Notes: generated from the sequence alone by a model not told the origin. 64,000 bases of DNA from a virus (IMGVR_UViG_3300021399_000099:64001-128000); one strand, 5' to 3'; counted from the first letter of the stretch, positions 2,695-18,637 are shown. A program made the numbers and translations.

Positions 2695-4323
2695 TTACTT
2701 CACAAAAGCGAAGATTTCCTGGGAAAGTGCCTTCTGTACCATTTCCTCCATAGTCAGAGGCGTACCGTCCGGCTTGGTCTGCTCTTCACCGCCAAGCAGA
2801 AGTGTGACGATAGAACCGTCAAATCCGCTGAACACGTAGTTGCCACCCTGGTCCATTGTTGCAGGAACATCGTGACCGGCACCATCACGGGATGCACAAT
2901 ACCACCAGATGAAGTTGAAGTTATCAACAAATTCATCACTGAATACCGTGCGGAGGAGTGCCCTTGCCGCTTCCTGGTTTGTAGCCTCACGCTCGCTGCG
3001 ACGATTGTAGTAACCGCTAGGATTGAACTGCATATCAGAAACTACGAGCAGGGTCTGAGGGAACTCACTCTCCGGAATTGAAGGGTGCTTTTTCCTTTCA
3101 TCCACAAGGAGTTCCACAAGAGACATGAAGTTGGTACCACCCCAAGCCGTAGTTGCATTGCGGATTGCCTGCCACTTCTCGGAGAACGTACCGGAAAGCT
3201 TCATAACACGCGAAGTGTTATCAAACATGGCAACAGTGTTGTGGAAGTAGCCCTCGTTCAACTCCGAGAAGTAAATACCGAGGGAGACGCACACATCATA
3301 AGAAGAGAGCCCATTGACACCAGAGACACCACAAGCCATCGAGCCAGAGGTATCGAGTGCGCAAAGCACGTTACCCTTAAGACCGCCCTGGTCCTTCTTT
3401 GCGAGCTCAATGAGGCCATCAAACTGCTTGTTGATGGTGTAGATTGCCGCAGCCCTTGAAGGTGCTGTGTTCATTGAGAGATTACGACCCATAGCATCAA
3501 GCTTCATACCGAGCTCATAAACATAGCCGGTGAATTTGACGGTAGGCTGGCTCATCACCCACTTGAGGTAATCTTCGGTAAGTCCGTGATTATCAAGGAA
3601 CTTGCCAGAGATAAGGTGGGTAAGGGCACGACCGGGAATGGTCTTCCAGTCAATGTCGGCATAAGACCTGGAGCAGATAAGCTTCTGGAAATCGTGGGCT
3701 GTACCCGAAGCCTTCATCTTGCGGTATTCCTTAGCACTGAGACCGAGGAAAGAAGCGAAAGCCTTAGCAAGTACGTTAAGAGTCTTAGCCCGGTCAGTCT
3801 TGCACTTTTCAGCCGACTTAATTGCGGGCATGTACTTGCGGATAAGGTCACACTGGGTGGCATCGTCGAGTCCGGCAGCCATAATGCTGAAGATGAAGCC
3901 CTTATCAATCTTGTTCTGGTTCTCCATATCAAGGAGCATAAGGGTCCAAAGGTCCTTCCAAGAGCCCACAACCGGGAGGAGCCAAGCATTACGCTTAAAT
4001 GCCTCCGGCTGATTGTATGCAACCCAAAGAATACGCTTGAACGCCTCGTCCCTAAGACCAGCACCCTTCTGTACGGCCTCGGTCTTTTCGTTCTCACTAA
4101 CCTTTACCTTTCTGGTTACAAGGCGGAGGTAGAAGGGGAAACGGATAGCTGATTCGGGGTCTTCACGCCAAAGCTTTGCCTGTTCGGCGAATACAGTTTC
4201 AATCGGCCTACCAATGGCAGTACCGGCGTGAGAAAACTGGTCAATTATAGCCTTTCCGGCAGTTGCAAAGGAAACAGCTCCGTTCTCAGTGAGAGTAATG
4301 TTCTTGTCGTAAATTGTTGTCAT
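2695..4323 (-). CDS. TROVE-like/DUF2828-type protein with C-terminal vWA domain
   Basis: TLTENGA start, GAGLRD, GSWKDL, MIDAS DTSGSM, WGGTNF, VVSDMQF, SGFD motifs. Confidence 0.8.
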   Translation of the reverse strand: MTTIYDKNITLTENGAVSFATAGKAIIDQFSHAGTAIGRPIETVFAEQAKLWREDPESAIRFPFYLRLVTRKVKVSENEKTEAVQKGAGLRDEAFKRILWVAYNQPEAFKRNAWLLPVVGSWKDLWTLMLLDMENQNKIDKGFIFSIMAAGLDDATQCDLIRKYMPAIKSAEKCKTDRAKTLNVLAKAFASFLGLSAKEYRKMKASGTAHDFQKLICSRSYADIDWKTIPGRALTHLISGKFLDNHGLTEDYLKWVMSQPTVKFTGYVYELGMKLDAMGRNLSMNTAPSRAAAIYTINKQFDGLIELAKKDQGGLKGNVLCALDTSGSMACGVSGVNGLSSYDVCVSLGIYFSELNEGYFHNTVAMFDNTSRVMKLSGTFSEKWQAIRNATTAWGGTNFMSLVELLVDERKKHPSIPESEFPQTLLVVSDMQFNPSGYYNRRSEREATNQEAARALLRTVFSDEFVDNFNFIWWYCASRDGAGHDVPATMDQGGNYVFSGFDGSIVTLLLGGEEQTKPDGTPLTMEEMVQKALSQEIFAFVK

Positions 4324-5739: not shown

Positions 5740-6273
5740 CTAAAGTTGCTTTTTCCTGATTTGAACAATGACTTCGTCACTCATTTTAAATTTATCAAGA
5801 ATATCATCTGGCCAATCGAGAACCGTGGGCCCAACTATCCAGCCCACCTTTGTATTGAATGACGCTCCCTGCCCAGCTATCCACTCGGCGCCGGCTTTGA
5901 ATATATTTTTAACTATTTCCGGCTTTAAAAAGTTTTTATTTTGTGTATCGGCATATTTCTCTGCTGCCTCATCAACATTATCCGGCAGTTTAGGAATCTG
6001 AGCATTACGCCACTCTGCTCCCTCCTTAAAAGATTCTCTCGCATAGGCGTGTTCAGAATAAGTACAATTATCTGCCGCCTCGTCAATGTTTGGGGAAAGT
6101 GAAGATTCAATAATTTCACCGAATTGCCCATCTAAAACCCTATGGCACATTTCGGCAATATCTTCAACTTTGTCTTGTGCGTATTCATCAGCCGTATAGT
6201 TCTCGTTGTTTATTACAAGGTCACATTTACGAATAATGAACTTTAACAAATCTTTTACGTCTTCTCTTGTCAT
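5740..6273 (-). CDS. hypothetical protein with duplicated N(I/V)DEAA...FK(E/A)GAEW module
   Basis: Start reassigned to MTREDV; internal repeat visible. Confidence 0.7.
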   Translation of the reverse strand: MTREDVKDLLKFIIRKCDLVINNENYTADEYAQDKVEDIAEMCHRVLDGQFGEIIESSLSPNIDEAADNCTYSEHAYARESFKEGAEWRNAQIPKLPDNVDEAAEKYADTQNKNFLKPEIVKNIFKAGAEWIAGQGASFNTKVGWIVGPTVLDWPDDILDKFKMSDEVIVQIRKKQL

Positions 6274-6278
6274 AATCT

Positions 6279-6476
6279 TTACTTGTATTGTTTTCCGTAA
6301 TCGTCTTCCACAACATAGACACCGTAGTTCTTGTGGTAGTCCTCGTTGAGTTCCTTGCACTTTTTCAGTGCGTCGCGGAGCGTATGGTTATCACTCCATA
6401 TGCAATCATACGAACCGTCAAAATGATACCGAACGATTGTGTATATCGGGAGGTTAATTGGTTGTTTATTTTCCAT
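6279..6476 (-). CDS. hypothetical protein
   Basis: ORF tiles the operon. Confidence 0.6.
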   Translation of the reverse strand: MENKQPINLPIYTIVRYHFDGSYDCIWSDNHTLRDALKKCKELNEDYHKNYGVYVVEDDYGKQYK

Positions 6477-6478
6477 AT

Positions 6479-6871
6479 CTATATTAAATTTTCAAGGCAA
6501 TATTTAATAGCCGCTTCACAGGCTTCTTCATAACTGTTAAACCAGTCCCATTGCATTTTACTTGGAATGGGAATTTCCTGTTTTTGAATGAATACTTCAT
6601 ATCCCCAATTTTTATCACTGCCTATTACAGTATTGATACCAATGAAAAGATTATGGGTTTTTCTCAACCACTTCATTGTCATTTGAAGTGTTGGGGCATG
6701 AATACACCCAATAAGCCCATCACTATAGTATATTGAAATTGGAGAGTCAAAAAATTTTATTTTTTCTGGCGTTTCAGATAAAGTATAATAGTAGCCAATA
6801 GTGTCTTCGTCAAATCCTTTCTTTTTCAAGAGTTTTGCCGTTTCAAAACTTACGTAATCTTCGGTAATCAT
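6479..6871 (-). CDS. family A paralog 1 (MITEDYVSF...KWLR...YCLENLI)
   Basis: Three constant blocks shared with 4 other copies. Confidence 0.85.
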   Translation of the reverse strand: MITEDYVSFETAKLLKKKGFDEDTIGYYYTLSETPEKIKFFDSPISIYYSDGLIGCIHAPTLQMTMKWLRKTHNLFIGINTVIGSDKNWGYEVFIQKQEIPIPSKMQWDWFNSYEEACEAAIKYCLENLI

Positions 6872-7119
6872 AATTCTTTTATTTCCCTGATATAAGCATC
6901 AATTTTTTTTCTTGTAAGCCATATTGTGTTACTTTTTCCGCCTTTTGTACGGAAAGTTCTAAACGTGCCCACACTTGTACCTTTGTACCATCCTTCAGAC
7001 TGTTCCTTTGAAACCTTTTTTCGGAACATAAGGAGGCGTTTTATGTTAGTTCCGAAATGTTTTTGGAAGTATTTGCGTTCGTAGTTATTCAATCCTACGG
7101 TATCATGTTTTTCGTACAT
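6868..7119 (-). CDS. hypothetical protein
   Basis: ATGA overlap with the next gene. Confidence 0.6.
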   Translation of the reverse strand: MYEKHDTVGLNNYERKYFQKHFGTNIKRLLMFRKKVSKEQSEGWYKGTSVGTFRTFRTKGGKSNTIWLTRKKIDAYIREIKEL

Positions 7120-7218
7120 TTTATTTCTTCTCCGTTATGTCTAGTTCTGGGTTTTTCCGGGTCTATCTTCCCACCCATATAATCATTAAGAATCTTTATT
7201 GCTTCTTCCTTATTCATA

Positions 7219-7446
7219 TTACATTGAGTTTAGTTTGTTGATAAGTTTGTCTAACATGAGTCTCCCACCATTAAGGGTGTCCTCATTTTTCCACTCCTTT
7301 TTATAAGCTTGTTTGAGCCACGCCTTCTGTCCTTTTGCCCAATCCAGCAGAACGTCCTTACTGAGATAGCAAACATGATAAGGCAAACTTTCCGTCAATT
7401 CTTCTGCACTTATCTCATGCACATAAATCTTATCTGGTGCTTTCAT
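7219..7446 (-). CDS. hypothetical protein (MKAPDKIY type)
   Basis: ORF tiles the operon. Confidence 0.6.
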   Translation of the reverse strand: MKAPDKIYVHEISAEELTESLPYHVCYLSKDVLLDWAKGQKAWLKQAYKKEWKNEDTLNGGRLMLDKLINKLNSM

Positions 7447-7610
7447 TTAGTTTCCTCATTTCTTACGTTAAAGTCTTCACAATATTCGTGACCAAACACA
7501 TGGACTATTGTCGTGTGCGGATTGGTGCATATACCCTCCGGCTCGGTGCCCTCTGAACCGCTTATCGTTGGCTCATAATACTTGCAATACAAACAATAAT
7601 ACTTACTCAT
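7443..7610 (-). CDS. small Cys-rich protein (MSKYYCLYC...), absent from the ORF track
   Basis: 55-aa ORF fills the gap with ATGA overlaps at both ends. Confidence 0.6.
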   Translation of the reverse strand: MSKYYCLYCKYYEPTISGSEGTEPEGICTNPHTTIVHVFGHEYCEDFNVRNEETK

Positions 7611-7885
7611 TTCTTCCTTGCTTTAAGACCAAGTTCGTAGAAGTAATAAGCAATATTATTTAAAGTACCCCACCCAAAATCGCCATTTGGCTTATACCTT
7701 CTTGCCGCTTCCTCTAATTCCTTTTCCAAATCAACCTCTGGCTGTTCCTGCTGGAGAGAGGTAATGATAGAAAGGACATGATAGAGATTACCCTGCAAAT
7801 TGTCATATCCGCTATCGATAAGAAACTGTATCTGCGTTTTCAGTTTATCTGCGTCAATATATTTGTTCATAACGTTACTTATCAA
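7607..7885 (-). CDS. family C paralog (KYIDADKL...TSLQQEQPE)
   Basis: N-terminal and QQEQP blocks shared with 8080..8487. Confidence 0.7.
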   Translation of the reverse strand: MISNVMNKYIDADKLKTQIQFLIDSGYDNLQGNLYHVLSIITSLQQEQPEVDLEKELEEAARRYKPNGDFGWGTLNNIAYYFYELGLKARKK

Positions 7886-8090
7886 GCCATTTTAATGTTT
7901 CGTAATCCACTTGAATCAAGGCAGAAGATACGCCATTTCTGTAATCTAACGCAACCATAGACAATGTTCCGTTGGAATATTTCCTTCCCCTATCGACTTG
8001 AACATTTACTGCACAGTCGCGACCGATGTCCGTACGAATTTCCTGTAACCTCTCAATAAGCCCGTCGAGAGTCATTAATTTATTTTCCAT
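7875..8090 (-). CDS. hypothetical protein
   Basis: ORF tiles the operon. Confidence 0.6.
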   Translation of the reverse strand: MENKLMTLDGLIERLQEIRTDIGRDCAVNVQVDRGRKYSNGTLSMVALDYRNGVSSALIQVDYETLKWLDK

Positions 8091-8487
8091 TTTGATTCTT
8101 CTTATAAGCCCATTCTTCGACTAAAGTTTGTTCATCCCACGTACTTTCATCTTCGAAAGTATAAACCCATCCATCTTCTTCGTCAAACTCAACATTTACA
8201 ATTTTACCGAGAAGATACTCTCCTTCTTCATTTGAAGTATTGATGTAATAGGCAAGAACATCACCGACATTCCACCTCGACTTTTTCCCATGGACATACT
8301 CGGTTGATAGATAGCCATATTCTGGTTGCTCATCCGGTTGTTCCTGCTGGATGGAGGTGATGAATCTCCTGATGTCTTTCAAGGCACATTTATATCCGTA
8401 TTCTGCGTCCCCATCTTCAAAACCTTGTTCTTGAAGTATCCGCCTTTCTATCTCGGCAATCAGTTTTTCTGCGTCGATGTATTTCAT
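8080..8487 (-). CDS. family C paralog (MKYIDAEKL...TSIQQEQP) with a different C-terminal module
   Basis: Shared blocks. Confidence 0.75.
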   Translation of the reverse strand: MKYIDAEKLIAEIERRILQEQGFEDGDAEYGYKCALKDIRRFITSIQQEQPDEQPEYGYLSTEYVHGKKSRWNVGDVLAYYINTSNEEGEYLLGKIVNVEFDEEDGWVYTFEDESTWDEQTLVEEWAYKKNQNGK

Positions 8488-8496
8488 AAACTAAAA

Positions 8497-8757
8497 TTAT
8501 TCTGGTACATAAGCCGGGCATGCGTCGGCCTCTTCCTTTGTTGCAAAAGCATTGTTTGGGGTTATTTTACCGGGGATGTTACACATTGGTCCCGCCTCCC
8601 CATCGTGATACATTTCAAGGTAGGACTGCTTACCCTCCTCAAGGAATACATAAACATCTACATGAGTGATTTTAACTTGCTTCGCCTCGTTGGTAACCAG
8701 GTTTTTTCTCCATACAGTATCGCCGGGGTTAAATTGCGTTTCTATTGTCAGTTTCAT
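8497..8757 (-). CDS. hypothetical protein
   Basis: ORF tiles the operon. Confidence 0.65.
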   Translation of the reverse strand: MKLTIETQFNPGDTVWRKNLVTNEAKQVKITHVDVYVFLEEGKQSYLEMYHDGEAGPMCNIPGKITPNNAFATKEEADACPAYVPE

Positions 8758-8760
8758 AGG

Positions 8761-9036
8761 CTAAAATAGTTTTAACAAATCGTTAAACAAATCCAGCAAT
8801 ACACCTTCATTTGCAACGGCATTTAATGCTTTCATTTGTTCCTTGCTGGGCTTCCAATTGGACTGGGGCGAAGAAAGTTTCTGGCAAGACTCAACAATAC
8901 CTATAGCTTGTCGTAATCCGGCATCCTTGCCCATTTCCCACTCGTCGTAATCTCTATCAAGAATGGTTGGCATTAGATGCTTTCTTAACCTGGCAATCAG
9001 TTTATCTGTATCAATGTATTTGTTCATATTAGTCAT
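8761..9036 (-). CDS. family C paralog (MNKYIDTDKL...WKPSKEQM)
   Basis: Shared N-terminal block. Confidence 0.7.
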   Translation of the reverse strand: MTNMNKYIDTDKLIARLRKHLMPTILDRDYDEWEMGKDAGLRQAIGIVESCQKLSSPQSNWKPSKEQMKALNAVANEGVLLDLFNDLLKLF

Positions 9037-9214
9037 AGATAAAGTAATCCTTAAACATACCCTGTTCCTTAAGTTGTCTCATTACGTCGTTAAAAATCTT
9101 TTTTTTAGATTTATAGTCCCTGTAATAGCTATCCGTATAGGCAAGACCTCGTTCCATTAACCCAATAAGCTTTCTTGCTTCTTTGGTTTCTAATTCAATC
9201 TGCTTCATATTCAT
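9029..9214 (-). CDS. hypothetical protein
   Basis: ORF tiles the operon. Confidence 0.55.
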   Translation of the reverse strand: MNMKQIELETKEARKLIGLMERGLAYTDSYYRDYKSKKKIFNDVMRQLKEQGMFKDYFIYD

Positions 9215-9234
9215 AGTACAAAAATTTTCAATCT

Positions 9235-9537
9235 TTACAAATTTTTAACGTCGTAGCCTGTTTCATATAAGGTCTTAAGACTATCAATCTGTTCGGTCAG
9301 CTGTTCTATCTTTTCCTTGTTTTGTTTGTCGATAATTCTGATGCACCTGAGAGAAAATGCCAACGTAATGGTAATCAAAACCAAGCTGTAGGCGAAAACC
9401 CTCCAACTAATCAATTTGTTTTTCTCGCTGTCTTCCTTTCCACTACAGATAGAAGATGCCACCAGGTCACATACAATGGCAAGGATGGCCCCCATAACCA
9501 GACTAATAAGAATCCAAAGTGTATTACTCATAATCAA
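9235..9537 (-). CDS. 2-TM membrane protein; similar layout to 15785..16084
   Basis: Two hydrophobic segments followed by a coiled-coil tail. Confidence 0.65.
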   Translation of the reverse strand: MIMSNTLWILISLVMGAILAIVCDLVASSICSGKEDSEKNKLISWRVFAYSLVLITITLAFSLRCIRIIDKQNKEKIEQLTEQIDSLKTLYETGYDVKNL

Positions 9538-9563
9538 AAAATTAAATGTTCTTTACTATCATA

Positions 9564-9581
9564 TGCAAAAACCGTGCCAAA
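9564..9581 (-). promoter_or_regulatory. sigma54-type promoter TTTGGCACGGTTTTTGCA
   Basis: Perfect -24 GG / -12 GC consensus. Confidence 0.75.
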
Positions 9582-9597
9582 CTATTCTTGTACAATT

Positions 9598-9798
9598 TTA
9601 CACATCCTCAGACCAGTCCCCATGGTTCCAACGCCATCCGCTCATCCAGTCGCCCGCCATGTATATCCCACGACCGACCTTCATGACACACCAGGCCAGC
9701 GCGAACCACGACACCACGAACGGAGCAAGCACATACCACAGAATCTTCTTCCACCACGGGCATGTTTTCAAAAAATCTTTTATTTCTTTGTTAGTCAT
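9598..9798 (-). CDS. small membrane protein
   Basis: One hydrophobic segment; ATGA overlap. Confidence 0.6.
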   Translation of the reverse strand: MTNKEIKDFLKTCPWWKKILWYVLAPFVVSWFALAWCVMKVGRGIYMAGDWMSGWRWNHGDWSEDV

Positions 9799-10025
9799 AT
9801 TCTGTTATTCCACTTTTCAATCATTTTCTCCTTAAGCCATTCGACATCATAACGAAATGCCGATTGTTCCATTGTCGCACCACACTCACACTTGATGGTT
9901 ATTGACTTCTTGTTGAACGCCTCATTCCGCCCCTTAAGATACCAGTAAGGTTTTTTACCACAGAAAGGGCACGGTTTAAGCTCTTCCGGGTAGGTAATGT
10001 GGTTATGTATCTCGCTCATAATCAT
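9795..10025 (-). CDS. Lar-like restriction alleviation family zinc-ribbon protein
   Basis: ELKPCPFCG...CECG...WNNR pattern. Confidence 0.7.
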   Translation of the reverse strand: MIMSEIHNHITYPEELKPCPFCGKKPYWYLKGRNEAFNKKSITIKCECGATMEQSAFRYDVEWLKEKMIEKWNNRI

Positions 10026-10340
10026 TTACTTAACGTATTTGTTGATGTTCTCGTTTGTATCCGCCAGCCACTGTTTGTGTTTCTCAAGGTCGCGATTGTA
10101 CCTGTCTTGGTTTGTTTCACAGTATTTGCAACTTGGCCAATGTACGATTTCAACATCATATATACCAGACCCAATATACGAGTGATTGAAAATAAACTGG
10201 TGCGTATGCCCTTCAAATGTGAGCTCAATGAGTTTCGTGTCGTCCTCTAATGACTTCTCAGAACCCGGAACAAGGTTTTCCGCATCAAAATCGCAGGAAC
10301 ACAGCATCATAGCCGCCAATAACAAAATAAACTTTTTCAT
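10026..10340 (-). CDS. lipoprotein; paralog of 30126..30350
   Basis: LCS-C lipobox; FEGH...VHxPxC motif. Confidence 0.7.
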   Translation of the reverse strand: MKKFILLLAAMMLCSCDFDAENLVPGSEKSLEDDTKLIELTFEGHTHQFIFNHSYIGSGIYDVEIVHWPSCKYCETNQDRYNRDLEKHKQWLADTNENINKYVK

Positions 10341-10372
10341 AACATTCTTTTAATATTTTCAGCCATACTATA

Positions 10373-10390
10373 TGCAAAAACCGTGCCATA
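10373..10390 (-). promoter_or_regulatory. sigma54-type promoter TATGGCACGGTTTTTGCA
   Basis: Perfect -24/-12 consensus. Confidence 0.75.
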
Positions 10391-10419
10391 TATCAGTTTC
10401 GTTTCCGTGATATATCATA

Positions 10420-10851
10420 TTATTCCCAAATTACATCAATCGTTATTTTTCCTTCCACGTCATCCCACTTGCATTGCTTGCAGATGTTCGGGAAATCTTT
10501 GCTCGTCTCAGGATACCACTCAGAAAGTATGTTTCCAATCTCATACGGGTATATTTCTGCGGCGTGCATTGATAAACAGTTCATACTGCAGATAAACCAG
10601 GCTTGTTCTGTGTCCGGTTCATCATCAAATGTGAAAAACATAACACCACTCCGCACGTATGTCACCGTCAATTTTCTCCAACGCATTTTTTCACCATCGT
10701 AATGCCAGAATTTCCTGCCGACCTTGATGTATGCTTTAACCGCCTCGTCATGCTTGCAGAAAAGTTCATATAAACGCGTGGCAAACGTAGTGCGACTATA
10801 GTTTTTGTTTATGAAATCAAGTATTTGTTGCTCTATGTTATCCTTTTCCAT
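10420..10851 (-). CDS. hypothetical protein
   Basis: ORF tiles the operon. Confidence 0.65.
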   Translation of the reverse strand: MEKDNIEQQILDFINKNYSRTTFATRLYELFCKHDEAVKAYIKVGRKFWHYDGEKMRWRKLTVTYVRSGVMFFTFDDEPDTEQAWFICSMNCLSMHAAEIYPYEIGNILSEWYPETSKDFPNICKQCKWDDVEGKITIDVIWE

Positions 10852-10852
10852 A

Positions 10853-11230
10853 TTAAATCAAGTTTTCAAGACAGTACTTAATAGCGGTTTCGCAGGCTTC
10901 TTTATAGGTAGAAAAACTGCATAATGATTCACCCATTTTTTGACTTGAATCATTCATAAGCCAAATAGACCACCACCATTTGTAGCTTGTTAAAGGGTCG
11001 ATAACTATAAAAAGAAAATGTACTTCCCTCAACCATTTCATTGCCATTTGGAGAGTAGGACAAGTACATGTCATATCTTCTCTTAAATCGCTATTCCACC
11101 ACTCATCACGCTTAAGATTCTTCAAATAACCTTCATGTGGCTTACAGTAGAACATCTCACAAACTTCGTTAAACCCCTTCTCCTTCAAAAGTTTAGCGAT
11201 TTCAAAACTGACGTAATCTTCAGTAATCAT
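10853..11230 (-). CDS. family A paralog 2
   Basis: Start reassigned to MITEDYVSF by paralog alignment. Confidence 0.85.
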   Translation of the reverse strand: MITEDYVSFEIAKLLKEKGFNEVCEMFYCKPHEGYLKNLKRDEWWNSDLREDMTCTCPTLQMAMKWLREVHFLFIVIDPLTSYKWWWSIWLMNDSSQKMGESLCSFSTYKEACETAIKYCLENLI

Positions 11231-11378
11231 AATTTTCTTTTTTATTTCCTTTCCACCAAGGACAACCGAGGCACATTTTATCAACCTCGTCCGGCTTCTT
11301 ATTTTCATCCGTTTTTTTACCAGAACACCACATTGGACTGTCCCATGACCAATGCATACCACATTTTGCAACAGCCAT
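11220..11378 (-). CDS. small Cys/Trp-rich protein (MAVAKCGMHW...), absent from the ORF track
   Basis: 52-aa ORF fills the gap between B1 and A2. Confidence 0.55.
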   Translation of the reverse strand: MAVAKCGMHWSWDSPMWCSGKKTDENKKPDEVDKMCLGCPWWKGNKKENYDY

Positions 11379-11390
11379 ATCTATTCAGTT

Positions 11391-11750
11391 TTAATACATT
11401 CCTTCTTTTGCTTCAAGAGCAAGCCCCATTGGAATAAGACCACGATAGTCAAAATGATTCTCAATTAACCACGTTATTAACTCTTCAGCATTTATCGCAT
11501 TGGGTCTTAGTGATAGTTCTTCAATGTGAATGTTATAATAGCCGGATTCATCGTATGTCATACTTTCCATAGGACGGAGATAGGGCTTGCACTCTCGCAC
11601 TACGACATTATCCGTATAATTTAGGGTTCCTGTTTTAATATCAACCTCACGTAATTCTATATTTGCACCATCATTTCTATGGTATATAACCCCGTAAGGT
11701 AACCTCGCAGAAAGGTCCTTTAATAGTAGTTCTTTTTCCTCTTGTGTCAT
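11391..11750 (-). CDS. family B paralog 1 (MTQEEKELLLKDL...KPYLRPM...FDYRGLI...ALEAKEGMY)
   Basis: Three constant blocks shared with 3 other copies. Confidence 0.85.
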   Translation of the reverse strand: MTQEEKELLLKDLSARLPYGVIYHRNDGANIELREVDIKTGTLNYTDNVVVRECKPYLRPMESMTYDESGYYNIHIEELSLRPNAINAEELITWLIENHFDYRGLIPMGLALEAKEGMY

Positions 11751-11752
11751 AT

Positions 11753-12163
11753 CTATATCAAGTTTTCAAGACAATACTTAATAGCTGCTTCACAGGCTTC
11801 TTCGTAAGAATCATATCCTGTCAGTGTGTCAATAAGTCCATTCTTTTTAATTTTACAAACATCGACATACCACCACAGTTCGTCATCAAGCCCCCAATCA
11901 AAAAGTAGCTCAATAGATAACCTATGCACTTCCCTTAACCATTTCATTACTATTTGAATGGAAACGTGGGGCGCCACCAGTGTCAATGTTTCAGAATCAA
12001 AAGGAAGTTCTGGGCTATATTCTTCGTTAGGAACAGTGTAACTATTGTTCTTCCGCCACTCATCTCTATCCTGCTCTGAATAAAATGGAGATTCAAGCCA
12101 ATCAAACCCCTTATCTTTCAAGAGTTTAGCGGTTTCAAACGAAACATAATCTTCTGTAATCAT
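11753..12163 (-). CDS. family A paralog 3
   Basis: Constant blocks. Confidence 0.85.
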   Translation of the reverse strand: MITEDYVSFETAKLLKDKGFDWLESPFYSEQDRDEWRKNNSYTVPNEEYSPELPFDSETLTLVAPHVSIQIVMKWLREVHRLSIELLFDWGLDDELWWYVDVCKIKKNGLIDTLTGYDSYEEACEAAIKYCLENLI

Positions 12164-12168
12164 ATTCT

Positions 12169-12735
12169 CTAATCTTCTTTTTTCTTCAAGAAATCAAAAT
12201 CATAATGCTTCCAATCTTTCAACTCGGTTTCCAACTTACTGAAATCCATACGGTGAGCACCAGTTTCCGCTACAATCTTTATGAGCGACTCGACGGCTTC
12301 ATTATTCACATCCAGAAGAATAGTGCTAACCAAGATACAAAACTGGAAGAACAAGAACCTTTGAACTTCTCCGGGGTAATCCACCATCCTATGGCGACCA
12401 CCGCCTACAAGCATTATATCGCCCATCAAGCAATTTGCTCCATCGACGGGAACCTTCCGTTCGTACTGTTTTCCATTCACATCGGTACGGAAATAAAGCA
12501 TGAATTTAGGATACAACGAATCAACACTCGCAATTTTAACAACCACTATATCAAAGTGGAAATCATTACGCGGACGCTCATCGCAAATATGGGCGACGAC
12601 CGATTCCCTTGCCTTTTCTTCCATTTCGTGGAGCATCTTAATAGACTCGTCCGTAGGTGCCCTGTGCTCATGGACGTTAATCGTATCAGGGAAATGGACG
12701 CTATGGTCCTCATGTACATGTGTAGTATTAAACAT
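12169..12735 (-). CDS. hypothetical protein
   Basis: 188-aa ORF in the operon. Confidence 0.7.
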   Translation of the reverse strand: MFNTTHVHEDHSVHFPDTINVHEHRAPTDESIKMLHEMEEKARESVVAHICDERPRNDFHFDIVVVKIASVDSLYPKFMLYFRTDVNGKQYERKVPVDGANCLMGDIMLVGGGRHRMVDYPGEVQRFLFFQFCILVSTILLDVNNEAVESLIKIVAETGAHRMDFSKLETELKDWKHYDFDFLKKKED

Positions 12736-12763
12736 TTTGATGAATTATTTTACTTGAATATAA

Positions 12764-13162
12764 CTAAATCAAATTTTCAAGGCAATACTTTATAGTCGCT
12801 TCAGCTGCTTCTTCGTAAGTGTTGAACTCCATTTCACCAAATGGATTTTTATATTCACCAGATTTACTGGAGAATCTGCACACGGACGGTGCGAAAAAGT
12901 AGTACTGATTATTATCAACGTCAAAACCCATCTCGACAGATATGTGGATTTTATGCACTTCCCTCAACCACTTCATTGCCATTTGAATAGAACAAACTTC
13001 TATAATCTCATCACCTATATTATAGTAGTATCCCTGTCCAGGGTTGCGTCTTAAAAACTCCCCATTAATAAACACCCCTCTAAAAGAATCATATGGTACA
13101 ACAAACCCCTTTTCCTTAAGGAGTTTCGCTGTATCAAAACTAACATAATCTTCTGTAATCAT
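12764..13162 (-). CDS. family A paralog 4
   Basis: Start reassigned to MITEDYVSF. Confidence 0.85.
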   Translation of the reverse strand: MITEDYVSFDTAKLLKEKGFVVPYDSFRGVFINGEFLRRNPGQGYYYNIGDEIIEVCSIQMAMKWLREVHKIHISVEMGFDVDNNQYYFFAPSVCRFSSKSGEYKNPFGEMEFNTYEEAAEATIKYCLENLI

Positions 13163-13164
13163 AA

Positions 13165-13533
13165 TCAAATCAATTTCTCCAAACAATATTTTATTGCTGC
13201 CTCACAAGCTTCTTCATAAGATGTTTTAGATAATCTTTTATCCCATCCCTGTATATTTGCGCCAGTTGTGCGATAAAGATATCCAATATAATTTCCATTA
13301 TTTTCAATTGCCATTGTAATATGAATGTTATGCACTTCCCTCAACCATTTCATTGCCATTTGAAGGGTCGGACAAAGAAACTCATCTGTTTGAATACATG
13401 ACAACAAATCATGCGAAAATATCATAGGATTCTCAAAATCTTCAGTGTAGTAACTTTTTGTAGTCGGTTCATCAAACCCCTTCTCTTTAAGGAGTTTAGC
13501 AGTTTCAAAAGAGACATAATCTTCGGTAATCAT
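13165..13533 (-). CDS. family A paralog 5
   Basis: Constant blocks. Confidence 0.85.
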   Translation of the reverse strand: MITEDYVSFETAKLLKEKGFDEPTTKSYYTEDFENPMIFSHDLLSCIQTDEFLCPTLQMAMKWLREVHNIHITMAIENNGNYIGYLYRTTGANIQGWDKRLSKTSYEEACEAAIKYCLEKLI

Positions 13534-14240
13534 ATTTTATCATTCAAATATTTAATAAATCTTTCTATAATATAATTCGACATATCATCAGGGTGTTCAA
13601 ATCCTTTCTTCTTCAACTCATTTTTCAATTCCGAGTCTGTGTCTGCCCATAATCCCCATTCATTTCTAATCCATCTACCCATTGAGTTATGCACAGAAAT
13701 TGCGCCGTTTTCGAGAAGGTAATCCCTGTCTTCTTTTGAAACTACCTTAGCCAAGATTTTGACTGCTTCATCAACGGTTTTTGGGGTGGGAATCTTGTAT
13801 TCTTCTTTATTATACATCCCTTCTTTAGCTTCAAGTGCGAGCCCCATAGGTATTAAACCACGGTAGTCAAATTGACGAGCATTGAGCCAATCAGAAATTT
13901 CTGCAATGGCTGATTCTCTTCCGACTTCAGCAAATGCTACTCGTTGTAGCTCTTGATTTCTGAAATCAAAGTATTCATTTCTTTCCTCCTCAGTCATGGA
14001 AGACATTGGACGGAGATATGGCTTTAATACAATATTATCATTGACAAAATCACTGATGATATTAGTATTAAGTATTTTTTTTACTGTAACGTTACGCACT
14101 TGATTAACAGGCATGCTTATACCGTTATTCATTGGTTTTAGTTCCCTGACTACACCTTTTTTGGTAATACTGCATTTTACCTTATAAGGCAACCTTGCAC
14201 AAAGGTCCTTGAGCAATATCTGTTTTTCTTCCTGTGTCAT
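13530..14240 (-). CDS. family B paralog 2 fused to a C-terminal DUF6794-like module
   Basis: B blocks followed by PKTVDEAV...GRWIRNEWGLW...HPDDMS. Confidence 0.8.
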   Translation of the reverse strand: MTQEEKQILLKDLCARLPYKVKCSITKKGVVRELKPMNNGISMPVNQVRNVTVKKILNTNIISDFVNDNIVLKPYLRPMSSMTEEERNEYFDFRNQELQRVAFAEVGRESAIAEISDWLNARQFDYRGLIPMGLALEAKEGMYNKEEYKIPTPKTVDEAVKILAKVVSKEDRDYLLENGAISVHNSMGRWIRNEWGLWADTDSELKNELKKKGFEHPDDMSNYIIERFIKYLNDKI

Positions 14241-14387
14241 ATTTTATGATTTTCAATGTCTTCAATTAACTTTTTAGCCATAGTTTTTATACTATAATCA
14301 GCATGCTCATCTAATTTTATCGCTATAGGCAAACCTATTATAAAAACCAAAGCAAACAATATTGGTAAGAAGTTCGTAATCATCTTA

Positions 14388-14876
14388 TTAACTTTTATAC
14401 ATATCTTCAGGTGCTTCGAGAGCGAGCCCCATAAGAATTAAACCTCGATAATCAAAGTGGTGAGCATTGAGCCAATCAAATACAAGTATTACTACATCAG
14501 ATGGAACTTCTGATAAGTAGAAATCAAGACATTTATATGTTCCATTTTGGAATGAAGCCAAATCAAGTTGTTCATATTTCAAACCACTATATTCTTTTAG
14601 TTTTTCAAATTCTTCCTCAGTCATACTTGACATTGGACGGAGATAAGGTTTAATGGTTTCTAAAAAACCCGTATAATGTACATCATCGGTAACTCTTCTA
14701 TAATCTTCGCCGCCAACACTTTTATATGTTTCCAACATCAGAAATAAATCATCAGAAACTCTACCAAACAGTGTATGTACTTGAGGCTCTGAATAACTTG
14801 TATTTTCTATTTTAACCCCATACGGCAACCTTGCACAAAGGTCTTTAAGCAATAGTTCTTTCTCTTCCTGTGTCAT
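14388..14876 (-). CDS. family B paralog 3
   Basis: Constant blocks. Confidence 0.85.
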   Translation of the reverse strand: MTQEEKELLLKDLCARLPYGVKIENTSYSEPQVHTLFGRVSDDLFLMLETYKSVGGEDYRRVTDDVHYTGFLETIKPYLRPMSSMTEEEFEKLKEYSGLKYEQLDLASFQNGTYKCLDFYLSEVPSDVVILVFDWLNAHHFDYRGLILMGLALEAPEDMYKS

Positions 14877-15784: not shown

Positions 15785-16084
15785 TTAAATGCTTACGGTT
15801 GTGGTGTCGGTTTGCGGCATAGGTTCCTCAAGCACTTCAATCCTGGTTTTCAGTTCTTTTATTTGTTTGTCATAGCTATAACAGGCCCGACCGAGCATCA
15901 AAGCCAGTGACAAGTAGATGGTCAAGCCGAATACATACAACCAAACACTAACTCTATTCTTCGCCTTTTCCTTGGTATCGTAGTCGGTTTCTCTCGAACA
16001 TTTCTTAACATTGTCGGCAACAATATCGGGGACAATACTCATAACGATGCCAAAAACGACCAAAATAATAAAATACAGTACCAT
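15785..16084 (-). CDS. 2-TM membrane protein
   Basis: Two hydrophobic segments. Confidence 0.65.
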   Translation of the reverse strand: MVLYFIILVVFGIVMSIVPDIVADNVKKCSRETDYDTKEKAKNRVSVWLYVFGLTIYLSLALMLGRACYSYDKQIKELKTRIEVLEEPMPQTDTTTVSI

Positions 16085-16842
16085 TACTCTCCTACGTTAA
16101 TAAGTTTCTCAATATATTCTCTTCCTTCTCCCTTGAAAATAGGGATGTTATAATCCACAACCCAGTGTCCTTCCTCGTCCTTGATGCAGCACATTCCTCT
16201 CTGCTGTTTGGTGGGGAGGTTGTTCCATAGAATACCGGTTTTTTCTTTAACCATTGTGATAATATCATCGGTACTCTTTTTGTGGAGTTCCTTGTGCGAA
16301 AAATGTGCCTGACCGAGTGCCTGGATGGAATTACGGATAGCGTCTTGTTGTCTCCAGAGCACACAATTTGTGACTTCCTCTTTCGGTACGTTGAAAGCTC
16401 GACAATCGAAGAAGACGCCCTTGCTCAATGCCTTGTCATAAACCTCCGGATTTCTCTCATTTGACAAAAACTTAAAGCTGCCCATGGCTTCGATAAACTT
16501 CCAGGTAGCCATTGAAGCCGCGACCGATACCATCTTCTGGATACTGTTGTTGAACCAAGAACTGGTATTAAGTTCCTGATAATCAACAAGAACCAGCGTA
16601 ATCTCGTCGCTTTGCGTATAGCCGAGGACACACCCCTGGATATTCTCACAAAGGTATCTCATCGTCATTTCCATGGACTTGGCAAAAATCTTGTCGTATG
16701 GCTTGGCAAATCCCTTGGTAAAAGTGTGGAATGCCCTGCCGTCAAGCCTTAATATAACCGGCATTCTGCTGATGAGGTGGTTTCTTGTGATATTCTCGTA
16801 TCCCTTCATGCGGTCACCGAGACTTGTCTTATCTGTCGCCAT
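16084..16842 (-). CDS. thg1: tRNA(His) guanylyltransferase Thg1-like protein (3'-5' polymerase)
   Basis: LGDRMKGYE, RLDGRAFHTFT, YTQSDEITL, FDCR, WRQQDAIRNSI motifs. Confidence 0.93.
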   Translation of the reverse strand: MATDKTSLGDRMKGYENITRNHLISRMPVILRLDGRAFHTFTKGFAKPYDKIFAKSMEMTMRYLCENIQGCVLGYTQSDEITLVLVDYQELNTSSWFNNSIQKMVSVAASMATWKFIEAMGSFKFLSNERNPEVYDKALSKGVFFDCRAFNVPKEEVTNCVLWRQQDAIRNSIQALGQAHFSHKELHKKSTDDIITMVKEKTGILWNNLPTKQQRGMCCIKDEEGHWVVDYNIPIFKGEGREYIEKLINVGE

Positions 16843-17221: not shown

Positions 17222-18637
17222 TTAGGCGAGACCGATTTCCTTCGCCTTTTTCTTGACAAATGCCTCGGCCTCGTCAAAGTTGTTTCCAATCACACCGTCC
17301 AGAATTGCTTCCTTCACGGCATCTTTCAGCACAGCGATAGTCTTGGACGGCTTAAGGTGGAATGTCTCCATGATATAGTCGCCAGTAATCGGGTTTTTAA
17401 AGTTCCGGATTGCGTCTTTCTCTTCAACCTCAGCAATATGTTTCTCAATTATGATGAGGTTGTTGTAGATTCTCGTTCGCTTCTCTTCATACTTGGTAGT
17501 CACATCGCACTTTGCCAGAATGAGCAGGTCGTCGATATCGTCTCCGGCATCGAAAAGGAGCCTGCGAATTGCACTATCGGTAACCCCCTCCTCAGCAAGT
17601 GTAGTAGGACGCATATGCATATCGACCAGCTTTCTCACATGTTCCGCCATGTCCATAGGAAGGTGAAGCCTGCGGAATATACCTTCAATCATCTTGGCAC
17701 CTGCAGGGGCGTGACTTTCAAAAGTCCAACCGCGTTTTTCATCGTATTTCTTGGTCACGGCCTTACCGATATCATGGAGAAGGGCGGCCCAACGAAGTGT
17801 CAAGCTGTCAGACATTCCGGCAACATTGTCCAGGACCCTCATAGTGTGGTCAAAAATGTCCTTGTGACCCTTATCTCCGGGCATACGTAGGTTATCTACT
17901 TCCGGCAAAATAAATGGCAATAAACCGGTTTCTTTGAGCAATATGAAACCCTGTGACGGTTTCTTTGAGACCAGTATTTTGTTCAGTTCCTCGGTGATAC
18001 GCTCCCCGGAAAGAGTCTTTATTTCTTCCTTGCACTCTTTTATTGCCTCAAATGTCGGTGTAGCAATGTGGAACTCCTTACCTGGACGAGACAGTTTGCA
18101 ACGGAAGCGGATACAGCGAAGCATACGTAAAGCATCTTCCGTAAATCTGTCTTTCGGCTCGCCAACGCATCTTATAATTCCATCCTGTAAATCGTTTAGA
18201 CCACCAAATAAATCAACCAATTCACCAAAATCTGCATCATTGACACTTATACACATTGCGTTGATGGTAAAATCTCTTCTCTTCAAATCATCTTCGAGCG
18301 TCCCGTCAAACACAAACGGTTTTCTGGACCCCCTCTTATAGACTTCTTTCCTGGCGCCAACGAACTCCACCTTCTGGTCTCCGTATTTCACCATAGCCGT
18401 GCCAAAGTTCTCATACACAGTGAGTTCGCCATTGGTCAATTTTGAAAACTCCTTGGCGGCCTTGATACCGTCACCAACACACAGGAAGTCAATGTCATCG
18501 TTGTCAATGCCGAGAACAAGGTCCCTGACAAATCCACCTACAACATATATCTTGGCTCCGGTAATCTTGGCGGCACTGGAAGCCAGCAGGAAAACCGGGC
18601 ACTTAATCAATTCGTCTTTATAGTTCATTCTTGCCAT
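17222..18637 (-). CDS. cca: CCA tRNA nucleotidyltransferase (class II) with HD domain
   Basis: VGGFVRD, DIDF, DLKRRDFTINA, FTEDALRMLR, ERITEEL, LLHDIGK motifs. Confidence 0.92.
   Translation of the reverse strand: MARMNYKDELIKCPVFLLASSAAKITGAKIYVVGGFVRDLVLGIDNDDIDFLCVGDGIKAAKEFSKLTNGELTVYENFGTAMVKYGDQKVEFVGARKEVYKRGSRKPFVFDGTLEDDLKRRDFTINAMCISVNDADFGELVDLFGGLNDLQDGIIRCVGEPKDRFTEDALRMLRCIRFRCKLSRPGKEFHIATPTFEAIKECKEEIKTLSGERITEELNKILVSKKPSQGFILLKETGLLPFILPEVDNLRMPGDKGHKDIFDHTMRVLDNVAGMSDSLTLRWAALLHDIGKAVTKKYDEKRGWTFESHAPAGAKMIEGIFRRLHLPMDMAEHVRKLVDMHMRPTTLAEEGVTDSAIRRLLFDAGDDIDDLLILAKCDVTTKYEEKRTRIYNNLIIIEKHIAEVEEKDAIRNFKNPITGDYIMETFHLKPSKTIAVLKDAVKEAILDGVIGNNFDEAEAFVKKKAKEIGLA

Follow-up and report, generated by a model that had tools for sequence, protein, structure and literature searches.

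Constant blocks of a multicopy gene family in large gut phages as probable recombination joints between exchangeable protein modules

The DNA analyzed here, which we refer to as the window, is a stretch of 64,000 nucleotides (nt; IMGVR_UViG_3300021399_000099:64001-128000) and part of a 216.9-kb IMG/VR virus record with an estimated completeness of 61%. Between positions 6479 and 13533 it carries five family A genes, A1 to A5, all of which are located on the minus strand and encode proteins of 122-136 amino acids (aa). The protein alignment of the five copies contains 37 invariant columns, which are clustered into three blocks: the N block comprising residues 1-20 (MITEDYVSF..AKLLK.KGF), the central block (Q..MKWLR..H...I), and the C block formed by the last ~17 residues (Y.EA.E..IKYCLE.LI). 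V1 and V2, the two segments that the blocks enclose, are unalignable among the five copies and of unequal length. All copies match PHROG 12005, a family of unknown function, with E values of 1.7e-16 to 2.3e-10 at profile positions 2-127 of 137; because every copy matches this profile over almost its full length, the array is not a chance arrangement. An earlier interpretation made from the DNA alone (the sequence-only reading) had described five paralogs in which three constant blocks frame two unalignable segments, and both the protein alignment and the PHROG 12005 matches confirm this description. The family A motifs do not occur again within the window, and two extra copies are located elsewhere in the 216.9-kb record (G000:C1:139024-139401 and 158091-158450).

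The five genes abut or overlap their neighbors, leaving almost no intergenic DNA. A1 (6479-6871, 130 aa) has its N block at 6812-6871, its central block at 6656-6694, and its C block at 6479-6532; in A2 (10853-11230, 125 aa) the three blocks lie at 11171-11230, 11021-11059, and 10853-10906, respectively. A3 (11753-12163, 136 aa) carries them at 12104-12163, 11927-11965, and 11753-11806, A4 (12764-13162, 132 aa) at 13103-13162, 12956-12994, and 12764-12817, and A5 (13165-13533, 122 aa) at 13474-13533, 13333-13371, and 13165-13218. The start of A2 is the ATG at 11230 that opens MITEDY, and the call of the open reading frame (ORF) tool at 10853-11371 is an in-frame upstream extension. Likewise, A4 starts at the MITEDY ATG at 13162 and not at 13186, the longer ORF call being an in-frame upstream extension as well.

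Comparison with locus L001, which is carried by G001, a complete 170-kb phage with terminal repeats, revealed that the family A gene at L001:4503-4892 is 100% identical to A1 over a 276-nt body and 98% identical over 393 nt, while the flanks of the two genes are unrelated to each other. The upstream flank of the L001 gene is orthologous to that of A5 (83-90% identity, 90% over 290 nt), which in the window consists of a gene at 13530-14240 (minus strand) encoding a family B protein fused to DUF6794 (PF20594, E = 2.2e-20), a conserved upstream neighbor of the family A slot. Despite this 90%-identical upstream flank, the body of A5 is unrelated to the L001 gene. Directly downstream, L001 holds an ortholog of the 143-aa gene that follows A2 in the window (10420-10851, minus strand; 75-82% nt identity to L001:4846-5323). 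The final 21 nt of the L001 family A gene are identical to A2 and not to A1, which places one crossover inside the C block, and the 5' junction lies within approximately the first 20 nt of the gene, in the N block. Beyond the array, G001 has no DNA in common with positions 15.5-35.4 kb of the window, and with 5.0-15.5 kb it shares only short, block-sized patches. A1 appears to be a recent import from, or export to, an otherwise unrelated phage.

The contents of the slot downstream of the B/DUF6794 gene change from phage to phage: the window, L001, L014, and L017 each hold a distinct family A body there. Identity among the orthologous B/DUF6794 flanks in L001, L014, and L017/L062 is 76-90%, and every one of these flanks is followed by a different body; the gene L014_9441, for example, has the V1 type of A4 in the slot that is held here by A5. 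In several other pairs, flank homology of 88-96% ends at the end of the N block or starts at the C block. The flank comparisons are partly non-independent, as a 300-nt flank may include an adjacent family A gene, and we relied only on pairs that had been checked by eye.

A BLAST comparison of gene bodies, made without reference to the block model, yielded 14 pairs at 91-100% identity that lack comparable homology in their flanks. After merging identical phage records, these correspond to about nine distinct cases, two of which involve the whole body and seven roughly half of the gene. Each of the seven half-gene matches stops in, or at most ~10 nt from, the central block. In all 12 inspected chimeric DNA pairs, identity drops from more than 90% to random inside the central block, the switch region being approximately CCnACnCTnCAAATGGCAATGAAGTGGyTGAGrGA. 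A clean chimera of this kind is L038, which combines the V1 of the L034 gene with the V2 of the L071 gene. Segment by segment, the shared V segment of chimeric pairs is 0.80-1.00 identical and the non-shared one 0.44-0.57, compared to random-pair baselines of 0.49 for V1, 0.51 for V2, and 0.75-0.79 for the blocks. The blocks adjoining a shared V segment are often at baseline identity, so that the cassette that moves is a single V segment with a block at either end. The sequence-only reading had proposed that the constant blocks could act as recombination handles; in agreement with this, the breakpoints of exchanged bodies, of V1, of V2, and of flanking genes fall inside the N, central, and C blocks of relatives.

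Among 280 unique family A proteins we distinguished 173 V1 types and 179 V2 types. V1 and V2 are not continuously hypervariable, as had been supposed, but fall into discrete conserved types. The V1 and V2 types are 3 and 4 in A1, 1 and 46 in A2, 0 and 0 in A3, 2 and 1 in A4, and 6 and 5 in A5. Pairs of proteins sharing V1 only (388) or V2 only (216) far outnumber the six pairs that share both, and 270 distinct V1/V2 combinations were observed compared to 274.8 ± 2.1 after shuffling. V1 type 0 (n = 32), which is that of A3, was found with 28 V2 types, and V2 type 0 (n = 21), likewise present in A3, with 21 V1 types. The V1 type of A2 recurs in 11 other proteins, each time with a different V2, and the V1 type and the V2 type of A4 each recur separately in other proteins. 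V1 and V2 types appear to be close to linkage equilibrium.

A search for longer relatives identified ~40 proteins of 254-308 aa that contain PF13392 (HNH_3) and, in some cases, also PF07463 (NUMOD4). Their order is N block, NUMOD4/HNH_3, an a1-like repeat (ELVKLLFEKGY), a short constant V1, central block, V2, and C block. Genes of this kind include those of P0286, P0289, and P0301 and the one at L077:6001-6873. In the 29 parsable proteins, the HNH part has a median identity of 78% and V2 one of 19%, and the 32 residues preceding the central block are 91% identical. Of the 338 pairs with an HNH identity of at least 70%, 337 have a V2 identity below 40%; a predicted complete NUMOD4/HNH endonuclease is found in-frame with 29 different V2 segments in 29 relatives. 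One of these genes, carried by a 300-kb phage, lies one gene downstream of a family B gene. The combination of one endonuclease cassette with many V2 segments is the pattern expected if the cassette enters family A genes through the repair of breaks and the conversion tract extends as far as the central block, and endonuclease-induced gene conversion would be a likely driver of exchange. No embedded endonuclease is present in the five window copies, which at 122-136 aa are of the short form. No match to a recombinase was obtained among the ~16 neighboring ORFs scanned, and no inverted-site structure was seen. The designation of the array as a recombinase-free cassette system is appropriate insofar as none of these ~16 ORFs resembles a dedicated recombinase, but has to be amended for the HNH homing endonuclease in the V1 slot of at least 29 relatives.

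At the DNA level, the constant blocks of the window copies are 77-82% identical to each other. The string CAAATGGCAATGAA(A/G)TGGTTGAGGGAAGT, said to occur in three copies, was found in A2, A4, and A5, and forms an exact 29-nt match between A2 and A5. At identical residues the window copies use the same codon in 58% of cases in the blocks, compared to 41% expected from local codon usage, and in 50% of cases in the variable parts, compared to 42% expected. A codon preference at individual positions is also seen across 102 distinct genes of the family, in which CTC is used at one Leu in 63 of 102, GGG at a Gly in 57 of 96, and AAG at the central Lys in 78 of 101. The mean same-codon fraction in the family blocks is 0.53-0.63 versus 0.41-0.51 expected, with the usage in the variable parts of the same 102 genes as background; the synonymous sites of the blocks are thus not at equilibrium, contrary to the saturation that the sequence-only reading had named as a refuting condition. 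Such a family-wide codon bias would be in line with blocks that are homogenized throughout the gene pool, or with a degree of DNA-level selection.

AlphaFold (AF2) models were obtained for two copies, A5 with a predicted local distance difference test score (pLDDT) of 80.8 and A3, for which a type-matched alignment was used, with a pLDDT of 86.1. Both models share the layout a1-(V1)-a2-bbb(V2)-a3, in which helices a1, a2, and a3 correspond to the N, central, and C blocks, respectively. The V2 segment is well predicted and folds into an antiparallel meander of three beta strands. V1 is structurally variable: the A5 model has three short strands at this place, whereas that of A3 has one helix and two strands. 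The models do not agree with the notion that the variable segments are surface loops; instead, whole beta modules are predicted between three conserved helices. Residues 54-122 align with double-stranded RNA-binding domains over ~60 residues with Z scores of 5.0-6.5 and a root-mean-square deviation of 2.5-3.3 Å, which according to the tool possibly reflects a mere shared arrangement, and a Pfam search of A1-A5 returned nothing above threshold and no match, to dsrm or otherwise, at E ≤ 1. The a2-bbb-a3 half also resembles T7 Gp1.2 (Z 6.2) and AcrIF4 (Z 5.6), both below the diagnostic level of the tool. We considered naming a fold family from the wide search with VIA-align and rejected this, since only a-b3-a matches at Z ≤ 6.5 were obtained, which is too weak. 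Foldseek against the PDB gave nothing at E ≤ 0.001, and a PDB sequence profile search with family A gave no match either. The proteins are acidic, with isoelectric points (pI) of 4.35-5.04.

Family A is not confined to a few phages. An exhaustive profile search returned 14,126 cluster representatives at E ≤ 1e-3, of which 4,299 reach E ≤ 1e-10, and a word-indexed search at least 7,999 significant homologs (7,999 of 8,000 candidates). Related viral contigs are mostly 100-400 kb long, with 1 to 9 family A copies per 20 kb. Atlas clusters of the same fold are 100% viral, and in species genomes matches were found in just 18 metagenome bins out of 185,579, several of them labelled as rumen or ruminant-gut (RUG, goat, roe deer); some of these matches lie on contigs of up to 410 kb that resemble binned phages. 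The family appears to be found almost only in large contigs of ruminant-gut phages. Megablast of positions 6000-14500 against GenBank phages gave no match, the Atlas structure and feature searches retrieved viral hypothetical clusters only, with feature scores below 0.9, and the literature searched contained nothing relevant on family A, DUF6794, or shuffled multigene families in huge phages. Some relatives, P0046 among them, combine the family A domain with DUF6794, and Pfam searches of seven longer fused forms (P0261, P0259, and others) gave no match. In P0357 the fusion partner is a GNAT acetyltransferase and in P0358 a RelA/SpoT nucleotide pyrophosphokinase domain; these two fusions may be clues to an adaptor or sensor role.

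Overall, our results suggest that the constant blocks of PHROG 12005 probably are recombination joints, and that the genes offer two module slots whose contents are swapped between phages and which in some relatives include a homing endonuclease. DNA blocks of 40-60 bp, which are ~78% identical between any two members, encode the three predicted helices a1, a2, and a3 and frame two slots, and the module in either slot belongs to one of numerous discrete, conserved types. The comparisons show that V1 or V2 by itself, whole bodies, and neighbor genes have been swapped between phages, even otherwise unrelated ones, with the junctions inside the blocks. Because these exchanges take place between phages at the blocks, the family behaves as a community-wide combinatorial cassette pool. 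Exchange might proceed by general homologous recombination or double-strand-break repair, with the blocks serving as short homology arms, and breaks made by the putative endonuclease and repaired from a homologous copy could be one driver. The blocks would be kept mainly as protein core, their role as recombination handles being largely a by-product. The window copies are old, mutually divergent residents of a hyperplastic small-gene region.

Several observations weigh against this model. No recent exchange is apparent among the five window copies, all of whose V types differ; the block-mediated swapping that had been proposed from the array thus applies to V segments and neighbor genes exchanged between phages, but not to recent swaps within the window. 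The longest exact matches between window copies are 11-29 nt, all inside blocks. Exact matches of this length do not exceed the minimum that efficient RecA-type recombination normally requires. The synonymous sites of the blocks are just modestly above saturation, and therefore protein-level constraint explains most of their conservation. All comparison sequences are metagenome assemblies, and the sample of 280 proteins was enriched for relatives of the window copies and pre-clustered at 90% identity, so that concordant near-duplicates were removed and fewer concordant V1/V2 pairs were counted. Neither RecA/UvsX nor RecT was found in the 216.9-kb record, which at 61% completeness is a weak absence, and the same 61%-complete record contains no relative of the embedded endonuclease, its one HNH_3 ORF, outside the window, being unrelated. 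Finally, function is entirely inferred: that the family A protein is a host-interaction or counter-defense binder is a guess from context, which we put forward tentatively.

Taken alone, the window copies would look like ordinary old paralogs that arose by duplication and diverged under purifying selection on three helices, without any special recombination. The block identity of 77-82%, the same-codon fraction of 0.58 versus 0.41 expected, and the lack of long exact repeats are all in line with this explanation. We nevertheless regard it as very unlikely for the family, since it does not account for the almost independent assortment of V1 and V2 types, the half- and whole-gene identities of 91-100% between genes with unrelated flanks, or the different bodies in one orthologous slot. 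Moreover, copy number varies from 1 to 9 per locus, and both copy number and order differ between relatives, which old paralogs would be expected to conserve according to the sequence-only reading. The apparent chimeras might instead be metagenome mis-assemblies across short conserved blocks, as all relatives are assembled contigs and exact runs of 20-50 nt in the blocks could confuse assembly graphs with small k. The data make this still less probable. The shared modules are mostly 80-99% and not 100% identical and have therefore diverged after exchange, and the same V type occurs in dozens of proteins from different sources and assemblers (ENA, Logan, JGI, NCBI). In the case of A1 and L001, the two contigs differ on either side of the gene, an outcome that one mis-join could not produce, and the shared tract of 276-393 nt is far beyond any k-mer.

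A constant scaffold with variable segments would also be produced by targeted hypermutation, through a diversity-generating retroelement or a similar system. We consider this explanation practically negligible, because the V segments differ in length and form discrete conserved types rather than adenine-specific substitutions, and no reverse transcriptase (RVT_1) was detected in the 216.9-kb record at its completeness of 61%. A more serious rival is adaptive diversification, in which the block DNA would be maintained as landing pads for recombination or homing in order to generate new counter-defense or host-takeover binders. The position-specific codons that are far from background across the family, the near linkage equilibrium of V1 and V2, and the endonuclease built into the slot architecture all argue in its favor, as do the acidic nature of the proteins, their weak fold likeness to T7 Gp1.2 and AcrIF4, and the presence of a gene for a Lar-type restriction-alleviation protein within the same array (9795-10025, minus strand; a 76-aa zinc ribbon, PF14354, E = 1.6e-10, surrounded by small genes). 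However, the codon excess is modest and explicable by homogenization alone, the fold matches are below the level that the tool regards as meaningful, and the family A copies have no match among the PADLOC defense-system models or solved structures. Adaptive maintenance of the blocks is on balance unlikely, albeit to a far lesser degree than the three explanations discussed before it.

The genes around family A contain further repeated elements. Family B (phrog_10841) is represented by three minus-strand paralogs in the window (11391-11750, 13530-14240, which is the copy fused to DUF6794, and 14388-14876), with a constant start, MTQEEKELLLKDL..RLPYG, and a constant end, DYRGLI..GLALEA. It is present in 51 of 77 loci holding family A, and 86 of 139 family A genes have a family B gene no more than 3 kb away. 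The minus-strand genes at 7607-7885, 8080-8487, and 8761-9036 make up a third family of small paralogs and have an N-terminal MNKYID.DKL block in common. The genes at 7607-7885 and 8080-8487 additionally share an internal QQEQP block, and both blocks are conserved at the DNA level (repeat families D7 and D12). A Cys-rich ORF of 52 aa (11220-11378, minus strand) overlaps the start of A2 by 11 nt; this region shows 86% conservation in L007, where another family A body lies downstream of it, and the ORF may be a real small gene. Adjacent 129-aa paralogs at L077:7173-7562 and L077:7559-7948 show a similar three-block layout (start YTD.EQSK.LAEILP, center WSLAALM.LLP, and a C-terminal helix) and may constitute a distant sister family of family A.

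A sigma54-like -24/-12 motif, TGGCACGGTTTTTG(C/T), was observed at 9565-9579 and 10374-10388 (minus strand) and at other positions, e.g., 4371, 17191, 23210, and 24846. With at most one mismatch, it has 15 matches in the window compared to 2.8 expected by chance, mostly on the minus strand, and an exact 19-nt pair of copies is located upstream of the genes 9235-9537 and 10026-10340. The motif (TGGCACGGTTTTTGC) was considered as a recombination handle and rejected, since neither of its two occurrences within the array flanks a family A gene. Larger genes of the window match a Thg1-like tRNA-His guanylyltransferase (16084-16842, PHROG E = 5e-89), a CCA-adding enzyme (17222-18637, PHROG E = 4e-73), and a Ro/TROVE-like RNA-binding protein (2695-4323, PHROG E = 3e-47), which suggests that a tRNA/RNA repair toolkit may lie beside the array. 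Larger window genes also match phage nucleotidyltransferase families, and a tRNA scan of the window found none.

The arrangement of family A recalls several known systems. In the gp38 adhesins of T-even phages, conserved glycine-rich motifs form the core and separate hypervariable segments (Trojet et al. 2011, PMC3157838, and the work of Tetart et al. 1996 and 1998 as cited there). Family A follows the same principle, in that short conserved coding motifs separate variable segments and recombination occurs at the motifs, but this is not homology. There is no relation in sequence or fold, the blocks of family A are helical and not glycine-rich, and there are two slots compared to four in gp38. 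Moreover, the family A genes are small, acidic in their products, and multi-copy, they lie amid uncharacterized small genes, one of which is Lar-like, and apparently not in a tail-fiber locus, and a homing endonuclease can fill a slot. Modular shuffling in the hyperplastic regions of T4-type phages is associated with the PeSL promoter/stem-loop cassettes (Arbiol et al. 2010, PMC2839356; PMC4122927). Here too, short conserved repeats across small accessory genes provide homology for insertion, deletion, and replacement. PeSLs, however, are intergenic and regulatory, while the family A handles are coding blocks (from the start to codon 20, in the center, and in the last 17 codons), and recombination therefore affects segments of proteins in addition to entire genes.

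The free-standing homing endonucleases SegB, SegG, and MobE of T4-like phages cause co-conversion and marker exclusion: HNH or GIY-YIG enzymes cut endonuclease-free alleles, and repair copies the endonuclease gene together with flanking DNA (PMC2790892, PMC2330249, PMC2988022). The NUMOD4/HNH_3 cassette of family A on 29 V2 backgrounds fits this co-conversion pattern, but differs in that the endonuclease is fused in-frame in a multicopy family, between the N block and the second a1-like repeat. Conserved flanks or motifs also let variable cassettes exchange in the segmental gene-conversion antigenic variation of Anaplasma msp2/p44 and Neisseria pilE/pilS and in the C-terminal swapping of Rhs/CdiA polymorphic toxins. 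These systems operate within one genome, with one expression site and silent donors or orphan modules. In family A, by contrast, every copy is a complete gene, and the exchanges documented here link the genomes of different phages. Family A is new and very large; it lies outside the gp38, PeSL, and Seg/Mob systems but combines all three features, with the endonuclease as a slot type.

Family A, which comprises over 14,000 representative clusters and frequently has several copies in a genome, is among the more abundant unexplained families of large gut and rumen phages. It is an unusually clean natural case of protein-module exchange: the two slots are near linkage equilibrium, the junctions map to blocks of ~40 bp, and one exchange, with 100% identity over 276 nt, connects two phages without any other common DNA in the 30 kb of the window that were compared. 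The endonuclease slot type across 29 partner modules provides a testable mechanism for the onset of shuffling. A bolder possibility, about which we are doubtful, is that the family constitutes a community-level diversity generator, in which helix-coding DNA would have been recruited to provide homing endonucleases and homologous recombination with landing pads, and unrelated jumbo phages of the ruminant gut would continually re-assort two independent binding modules (hundreds of V1 times hundreds of V2 types) of a counter-defense or host-takeover protein. If true, this would represent a counterpart of antigenic variation that is based on recombination and acts between viral genomes, not within one. 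If the modules bind host defense or takeover targets, the family would offer a ready-made library of natural binder variants and a model for the diversification of phage accessory genes.

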